DNA of 64,000 nucleotides from Escherichia coli (GTDB lineage: Bacteria > Pseudomonadota > Gammaproteobacteria > Enterobacterales > Enterobacteriaceae): assembly GCF_003334785.1 (NCBI RefSeq), contig NZ_QOWV01000001.1; one strand, given 5' to 3'. The notes under the pieces were generated by a model. That model was not told the origin of the DNA, searched no databases, and worked only from the letters and a program-made list of their open reading frames with translations. Within the stretch, counting starts at the first letter, position 1. Each line of letters begins with the position of its first letter. The position numbers and the translations under genes are program-made. Positions 22,052-22,085 of the stretch are shown here, in pieces.

Positions 22052-22085
22052 AGTTGTCGGATGCGCTTCGCTTATCCGACCTACA
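22052..22085. repeat. REP-like palindromic element
   Basis: gtcggatgcgcttcgcttatccgacctac resembles the REP consensus GCCGGATGCGGCGTAAACGCCTTATCCGGCCTAC. Confidence 0.5.

Follow-up and report, generated by a model that had tools for sequence, protein, structure and literature searches.

REP108 at the narI/tyrV junction of Escherichia coli: an atypical pair of REP units that is probably a tolerated passenger between two converging transcription units

The imperfect palindrome found downstream of narI is one half of REP108, a catalogued two-unit copy of the commonest intergenic repeat of E. coli. According to our analysis, this pair of the REP/BIME family, which consists of a Z1-class unit (PU1), an S-like linker and a decayed Y-like unit (PU2), probably persists largely as a tolerated passenger. 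The whole element lies at 22056-22128 of the window, by which we mean the complete 64-kb stretch of DNA that was analysed; it is a two-unit pair of the BIME type, as a degenerate inverted unit adjoins PU1 at a distance of 13 nt. At the narI/tyrV junction it is an intrinsic terminator and Rho, not the REP, that determine where transcripts end, and the junction itself is a small natural case in which REPs have been gained, have decayed and have been replaced, and in which a REP is targeted by the insertion sequence IS621.

Knowledge of REP elements goes back to the 1980s, and REP108 is itself already known and is functionally unremarkable on the available data; what the present analysis fixes is its true extent and architecture, namely two units at 22056-22128 arranged as an atypical BIME. 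In the supplementary table of a recent preprint (bioRxiv 10.64898/2026.03.23.713779) REP108 is listed at MG1655 1286595-1286666, between narI and ychS. An MG1655 coordinate here equals the window coordinate plus 1264538, and positions 21921-22426 of the window are identical to MG1655 and collinear with it, so the catalogued span corresponds to window 22057-22128 and takes in both PU1 and PU2. The RefSeq copy of NC_000913.3 used for comparison contains 0 REP features, and Rfam gave no match over the REP; for 21900-23300 it returned RtT, tRNA and sub-threshold noise only.

The two units, the linker and the BIME class

PU1 occupies 22056-22084 on the plus strand (CTAC orientation) and was recognised as a near-canonical Z1-class REP unit by consensus, by a covariance model and by folding. 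Its 29-mer, gtcggatgcgcttcgcttatccgacctac, contains a perfect inverted repeat of 7 bp (GTCGGAT/ATCCGAC, 11 nt spacing) with the tetranucleotide CTAC directly after the stem, at 22081-22084, and it is extragenic, with the narI stop (21988) to its left and the first rtT copy (22172) to its right. Either strand alone can fold into a hairpin with a 7-bp outer stem, a 2-nt interruption, a 3-bp inner stem and a 3-nt loop. As DNA, the two strands fold at -8.3 and -8.5 kcal/mol (z about -4.6, with 0 of 200 shuffles equal); as RNA, the fold reaches -12.6 kcal/mol (z=-4.1, 0 of 200 shuffles) and that of the other strand -12.3 kcal/mol (z -3.5).

In the 250 kb of MG1655 taken from outside the window we recovered about 45 palindromic units of three length classes, among them three exact copies of the Z1 consensus. 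The resulting consensuses, Y GCCGGATGCGGCGTAAACGCCTTATCCGGCCTAC, Z1 GCCTGATGCGCTACGCTTATCAGGCCTAC and Z2 GCCTGATGCGACGCTTGCGCGTCTTATCAGGCCTAC, match the REP queries that Durrant et al. 2024 (PMC11208160) give in their methods; the reported class lengths are 35 nt for y, 29 nt for z1 and 37 nt for z2 (PMC8266576), and literature counts amount to about 600-700 REP units per E. coli genome (PMC8266576 among others). PU1 shares with the Z1 class the 29-nt length, CTAC/GTAG, the 7-bp outer stem, the extragenic 3' position, the conserved internal mismatch, the 3-bp inner stem and the 3-nt loop, and 24 of its 29 bases agree with the consensus. Two compensatory stem pairs (C2-G24 to T-A and T4-A22 to G-C) account for four of the five differences and turn the outer stem into GTCGGAT/ATCCGAC in place of the consensus GCCTGAT/ATCAGGC; the fifth difference is a loop base, A to T. 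The same GTCGGAT...ATCCGAC stem variant occurs also in Y and Z2 units of MG1655 (1165739, 4317917, 4323297).

Among all 29-mers of the 64-kb window, PU1 alone has 6 or fewer mismatches to the Z1 consensus, while 20 shuffled windows used as a control produced only 1 match in all even at 8 mismatches allowed. A covariance model trained on 30 REP units of E. coli K-12 MG1655, all of them outside the window, placed PU1 at the top of the window with 41.2 bits (E=2.4e-7), where a canonical Z1 unit scores 43.3 bits and canonical Y units 50-56 bits. A fixed-spacing search with a Y-type consensus (12-nt centre, up to 3 mismatches) returned 0 matches in the whole window, which reflects a wrong probe and does not argue against a REP, because the unit belongs to the shorter Z1 class.

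The sequence-only reading, from which our enquiry started, had called 22052-22085 a single REP-like unit lying between the narI terminator and the rtT repeats, and had named alignment to the REP consensus, a search for further genomic copies and folding as the means of checking it. All three came out in its favour: the alignment is good by consensus and by covariance model alike, the additional copies are the units of MG1655 counted above, and the hairpin is present and beats 200 of 200 shuffles. The placement was also correct, with the narI terminator (22007-22032) on one side and the first rtT copy (22172-22303, minus strand) on the other. The span needs trimming, as it extends beyond the 29-mer by 4 nt at its 5' end and by 1 nt at its 3' end, and the single unit, though real, is only one of two, for the inverted PU2 at 13 nt had been overlooked.

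PU2, a degenerate Y-like unit, was delimited at 22098-22128 on the minus strand, inverted relative to PU1, by the covariance model and by the catalogue span. Its sequence at 22098-22127 is GCCCGATGGCACCACGTTTACCGGGCCTAC, and it stands tail-to-tail with PU1 in the arrangement CTAC - AGGGGAGGATATT - GTAG, the GTAG being at 22098-22101 of the plus strand. Taken alone it is weak, since it scores 15.4 bits (E=0.21 window-wide) and is the third-best match of the covariance model; we estimate the chance of a match of this strength so near PU1 and on the right strand at about 1e-4, taking 0.21 chance matches over 128,000 searched positions and scaling to a target of about 60 nt. The hairpin of PU2 is at the level of shuffled sequence in DNA and RNA folds (z -0.3 to -0.65), and the whole 101-nt region gives only marginal values (z -1.8 and -1.6). 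A plus-strand fold that joins PU1 and PU2 into one long hairpin was not taken as meaningful, because PU2 is not conserved, and a weak sigma-70-like match on the minus strand within PU2 and the linker (9/12) was treated as chance.

The linker between the units, AGGGGAGGATATT at 22085-22097, is a short, 13-nt, tail-to-tail spacer of S-like character, C-rich on the minus strand, and it resembles the 13-nt linker GGGGAGCGCATTT of the Z2/Y pair in the phn region. In MG1655, pairs of the BIME-1 type (Z1-Y) have linkers of 33-35 nt with GCAATATATTGAATTT, and short tail-to-tail linkers of 12-16 nt go with Z2/Y pairs and with a few Z1/Y pairs. With two inverted units joined by a linker, PU1 and PU2 do make up a BIME. 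Like BIME-1, REP108 is a single-copy tail-to-tail pair of a Z1 and a Y-like unit, but the 33-35-nt L linker with its IHF site is absent, the linker being 13 nt long and devoid of GCAATATATTGAATTT and of the IHF motif, and the Y-like unit is degenerate, with its 15.4 bits against the 50-56 of a canonical Y. With BIME-2 (Y-S-Z2 in tandem copies, for example REP325) it shares only the short G-rich S-like tail-to-tail linker (AGGGGAGGATATT versus GGGGAGCGCATTT); it carries Z1 in place of Z2 and forms one pair, with no array. A single pair that combines Z1, S-like linker and degenerate Y is neither of the two and corresponds to the 'atypical BIME' of Ton-Hoang 2012.

The spread of REP units is attributed to TnpA_REP (RAYT), which acts on the hairpin of the GTAG strand in single-stranded DNA (PMC8266576; Ton-Hoang 2012) and requires GTAG and a bulge (PMC8266576). 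Both features are present in PU1, and its GTAG strand, the one recognised by TnpA_REP, reads as the minus strand of the window.

Variation among strains and species

Of 5,426 complete E. coli genomes, 4,727 (87%) carry the REP108 block (22040-22145), nearly always as a single copy, and about 13% lack it. An alignment of six diverse strains shows no change in the PU1 palindrome or in the linker, but uncompensated differences at several positions of PU2. The CTAC/GTAG motif is mutated in strains 2A and APEC E956 (CTAC to CTTC), where PU1 scores 24.5 bits. The invariance of PU1 and the wide retention of the block are compatible with some selection, and equally with recent common ancestry, as we deal here with six sequences and clonal inheritance.

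Of the genomes lacking the block, E41-1 (L008, L011) was examined as an example. Here an island of seven genes takes the place of the narI terminator, REP108, every rtT repeat and tyrV (21989 to about 22790), so that it sits between narI and a single tRNA-Tyr, and no REP follows narI. The products of this island are a KAS-III-like protein, an NAD-epimerase, an MBL hydrolase, an F390-synthetase-like protein, a PAP2 phosphatase, a sterol desaturase and a fatty-acid desaturase. E. coli E69 (L019 8194-8291, which corresponds to window 22033-22162) possesses the K-12-type terminator and rtT/tRNA-Tyr with no REP between them; its spacer is 98 nt long, AT-rich and unrelated to that of the K-12 type, and has no match in the 5,426 complete E. 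coli genomes. The difference between the K-12 type and E69 is a block replacement (about 130 against 98 unrelated nucleotides), not a clean pair of filled and empty sites. REP108 is dispensable in at least some backgrounds.

We also scanned one genome per species, using the conserved 3' end of narI. E. albertii, E. whittamii and two more Escherichia species have a canonical BIME-1 located 12 nt past the narI stop. REPs very near a stop codon are reported to affect translation. The BIME-1 arrangement after narI (L017, L018, L020, L021, L022) consists of Z1, an L linker of 33-35 nt and Y; one of these five genomes is an E. coli assembly (L018), which has the same Z1 and L linker with an incomplete Y unit, and in the four non-coli species the seven-gene island is situated downstream of the BIME-1, again ahead of a single tRNA-Tyr. 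No copy of the K-12-type narI terminator was found between narI and BIME-1 in those five genomes. REP108 is not homologous by its flanks to the BIME-1 of the other Escherichia species, and, as REP108, BIME-1 and REP-less alleles coexist, the REP content of this position must have changed several times.

Separately from these alleles, APEC E12053 (L010 1206-2405) carries an IS4-family element that has split the narI stop codon from its terminator, and alignment to the window resumes at 22014, inside the terminator stem.

IS621 inserts into PU2

In strain MS6192 (L009 3199-4492) REP108 is interrupted by a copy of IS621, an IS110-family element guided by a bridge RNA. The minus-strand junctions read CCGGGC-CT-IS621-CT-ACAAT, which places the insertion at the CT core of the CCTAC of PU2, the complement of window 22100-22101. 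At least 12 complete genomes share this junction at 100% identity, and the REP108 block is disrupted in at most 48.

The usual natural target of IS621 is ATCAGGCCTAC, in Z-type units, and the target-binding loop of its bridge RNA has the specificity ATCGGGCCTAC (Durrant et al. 2024). Against the target ATC(A/G)GGCCTAC with its CT core, the PU2 site ACCGGGCCTAC matches 10 of the 11 bases of the ATCGGGCCTAC specificity, and the site is present in the Durrant 2024 supplement of natural targets as entry TBL_ATCGGGCCTAC_seq176, CGATGGCACCACGTTTACCGGGCCTACAATATCCTCCCCTGTAGGTCGGA. The corresponding stretch of PU1, ATCCGACCTAC, differs from the common target ATCAGGCCTAC at two positions, and no IS621 insertion was seen in PU1. 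That IS621 inserts into PU2 confirms by an independent route that the decayed unit still acts as a REP for a REP-targeting element.

Transcriptional context and possible functions

The order of genes in the window, hemA-prfA ... narXL, narK, narGHJI, tyrV/tyrT (on the opposite strand) and purU, is that of MG1655 from 1264539 onward. Beyond the narI stop (21988), the minus strand carries two tRNA-Tyr genes and four RtT copies, at 22172-23084, and the real configuration of the junction is convergent. The 2026 preprint, in its genome-wide REP analysis, classed it as 'tandem' because of the dubious ORF ychS. This annotated ORF (22171-22446, plus strand) lies wholly inside the rtT repeats, opposite to the tyrTV transcript, and looks spurious.

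Each of the two converging units, nar and tyrTV-rtT, has its own end signal outside REP108. For narGHJI it is an intrinsic terminator at 22007-22032 on the plus strand, outside the REP, revealed by a terminator scan and by RNA folding: the stem CCCTGC/GCGGGG, extendable to 9 pairs, with a UUCG loop, is followed by T7, and folds at -14.8 kcal/mol (z=-3.5, 0 of 200 shuffles equal). The reverse strand of the terminator gives a poor fold (z=-1.2) and lacks a T run. REP108 starts 23 nt past the T run, and with this terminator upstream it would be present only in read-through nar transcripts. Neither PU1 nor PU2 is followed by a T run on either strand, and the scan for intrinsic terminators finds only 22007-22032. 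The Term-seq tables of Adams et al. 2021 list no 3' end at MG1655 12865xx, and the cultures may not have expressed nar.

The tyrTV-rtT transcript arrives from the other side and is ended by Rho. Adams et al. 2021 (eLife, supplementary file 2) give a Rho termination region on the minus strand with its best coordinate at 1286692, which is window 22154, with a Rho score of 64.6 (p=1.5e-181); read coverage falls there from 1413 upstream to 12 downstream without bicyclomycin and from 1592 to 873 with it. The coordinate is 26 nt short of the point where the transcript would enter PU2, and it is only approximate, because the Rho scores of that study use 800-nt windows. Given that more than half of the signal passes the REP when Rho is blocked, the REP hairpins are no autonomous barrier to the polymerase. 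The earlier suggestion that the element delimits transcription units is thus right by position, while the ends themselves are set by the intrinsic terminator for nar and by Rho for tyrTV-rtT.

We propose the following origin for REP108. REP units do not move autonomously and presumably owe their spread to the domesticated transposase TnpA_REP, and one copy may have landed in the gap of two converging transcription units that had already been ended, nar by its intrinsic terminator 23 nt upstream of REP108 and tyrTV-rtT by Rho about 26 nt before it. Rarely transcribed and free of cost in such a position, it would persist as a tolerated passenger, with PU2, and in some strains the GTAG/CTAC motifs, decaying, and it would also offer a landing site to REP-targeting insertion sequences. 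At most, the element might be a back-stop, in which the hairpins of read-through RNA from either strand would pause polymerase for Rho or block 3' exonucleases; we consider such a role in Rho-dependent termination or in exonuclease blocking rather improbable. That REP108 is probably a passenger is suggested by its position after both terminators, by the roughly 100-fold drop of coverage before it, by the read-through under Rho inhibition, by the decay of PU2 and of the motifs, and by the existence of REP-less alleles.

The most serious competitor, which we regard as unlikely, sees REP108 as a working part of the Rho-dependent terminator of tyrTV-rtT, in fact its downstream half, that would guard narGHJI from antisense transcription driven by a tRNA promoter that ranks among the cell's strongest. 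Rho would load on C-rich RNA at 22140-22199 and the REP hairpins would pause polymerase in the release zone. A Rho-binding (rut) peak from the screen of Delaleau et al. at 22071-22260 (MG1655 1286609-1286798, minus strand) overlaps REP108 by 57 nt and sits in a bicyclomycin-sensitive transcript (supplement of bioRxiv 10.64898/2026.03.23.713779); the high Rho score belongs to the same transcript; and its RNA stays rich in C from 22199 onward and across the linker, being most C-rich and G-poor at 22140-22199, with a C/G of 3.67. Besides, that preprint reports some REPs, including REP325, as partial Rho-dependent terminators. However, the best Rho coordinate precedes the REP, and without bicyclomycin the coverage is already down about 100-fold, on a scale made coarse by the 800-nt windows. 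With Rho inhibited, downstream coverage recovers to 55% of upstream, so hairpins alone do not stop polymerase, and E69 keeps the terminator and rtT without any REP. Should REP108 nevertheless have such a function, the REP solutions of this junction, an atypical BIME in the K-12 type, BIME-1 in other Escherichia and none in E69, would have to be viewed as selected.

Considerably less plausible is a role of REP108 as a 3' stabiliser of narGHJI mRNA, in which its hairpin would block 3'-to-5' exonucleases. The RNA hairpin of PU1 is stable, at the -12.6 kcal/mol given above, and in some operons, according to the preprint (bioRxiv 10.64898/2026.03.23.713779), REPs protect upstream mRNA. The position of BIME-1 only 12 nt past the narI stop in other Escherichia, where the K-12-type terminator is absent, is in line with this too, and for this reason a REP may stabilise nar mRNA in those species. 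In the K-12 type, however, a strong terminator with its 9-pair stem and T7 precedes REP108, and most nar transcripts should end earlier.

REP108 has still lower chances of shaping local chromosome organisation by binding IHF or DNA gyrase. DNA gyrase binds arrays of BIME-2 (Y-S-Z2). The REP108 pair is not of the Y-S-Z2 type and does not occur in tandem. IHF sites are found in BIME-1 elements (Ton-Hoang 2012), but REP108 has no L linker, and neither the L motif nor the IHF consensus WATCAANNNNTTR has a match there. Moreover, the preprint (bioRxiv 10.64898/2026.03.23.713779) reports no long-range REP-REP contacts and no role of REP325 in compaction. Of the binders that had been listed for this element from sequence, IHF falls away with the 13-nt linker lacking WATCAANNNNTTR, gyrase falls away as this is not a BIME-2, and the features used by REP-associated transposases, GTAG and a bulged stem, do stand, for PU1 only. 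Finally, a chance palindrome unrelated to the REP family, for which only the general frequency of short inverted repeats would speak, can practically be dismissed in view of E=2.4e-7 for PU1, its being the sole Z1 match within 6 mismatches in the window, the canonical places of the CTAC tail, the bulge and the partner unit, and the fact that the element is already catalogued.

Other observations in the window

A second catalogued element of the window, REP109, is GTATGCCGGACGTCATATCCGGCATTTTT at 61996-62029, between the converging rluB and btuR; it is the second-best match of the covariance model (15.9 bits) and is listed as a bidirectional terminator.

The window is 99.93% identical to MG1655 across its first 34,960 bases, and at 34957-34960 it is without the 1,195-bp IS5 that MG1655 has upstream of oppA; in the first 48.8 kb there are 28 other differing positions. 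The source is closely related to K-12 but is not MG1655 itself. Ten of the 11 differences from MG1655 found in the region of 20-24 kb are clustered at 22427-22514, within 90 nt of one rtT repeat, and this clustering suggests gene conversion or unequal exchange among rtT copies, not point mutation. Another repeated locus, at 4547-6087, consists of a unit of about 535 bp present three times, with the ldrA/B/C toxin genes and the rdlA/B/C antisense RNAs, whose copies are 97.6-98.3% identical to one another.
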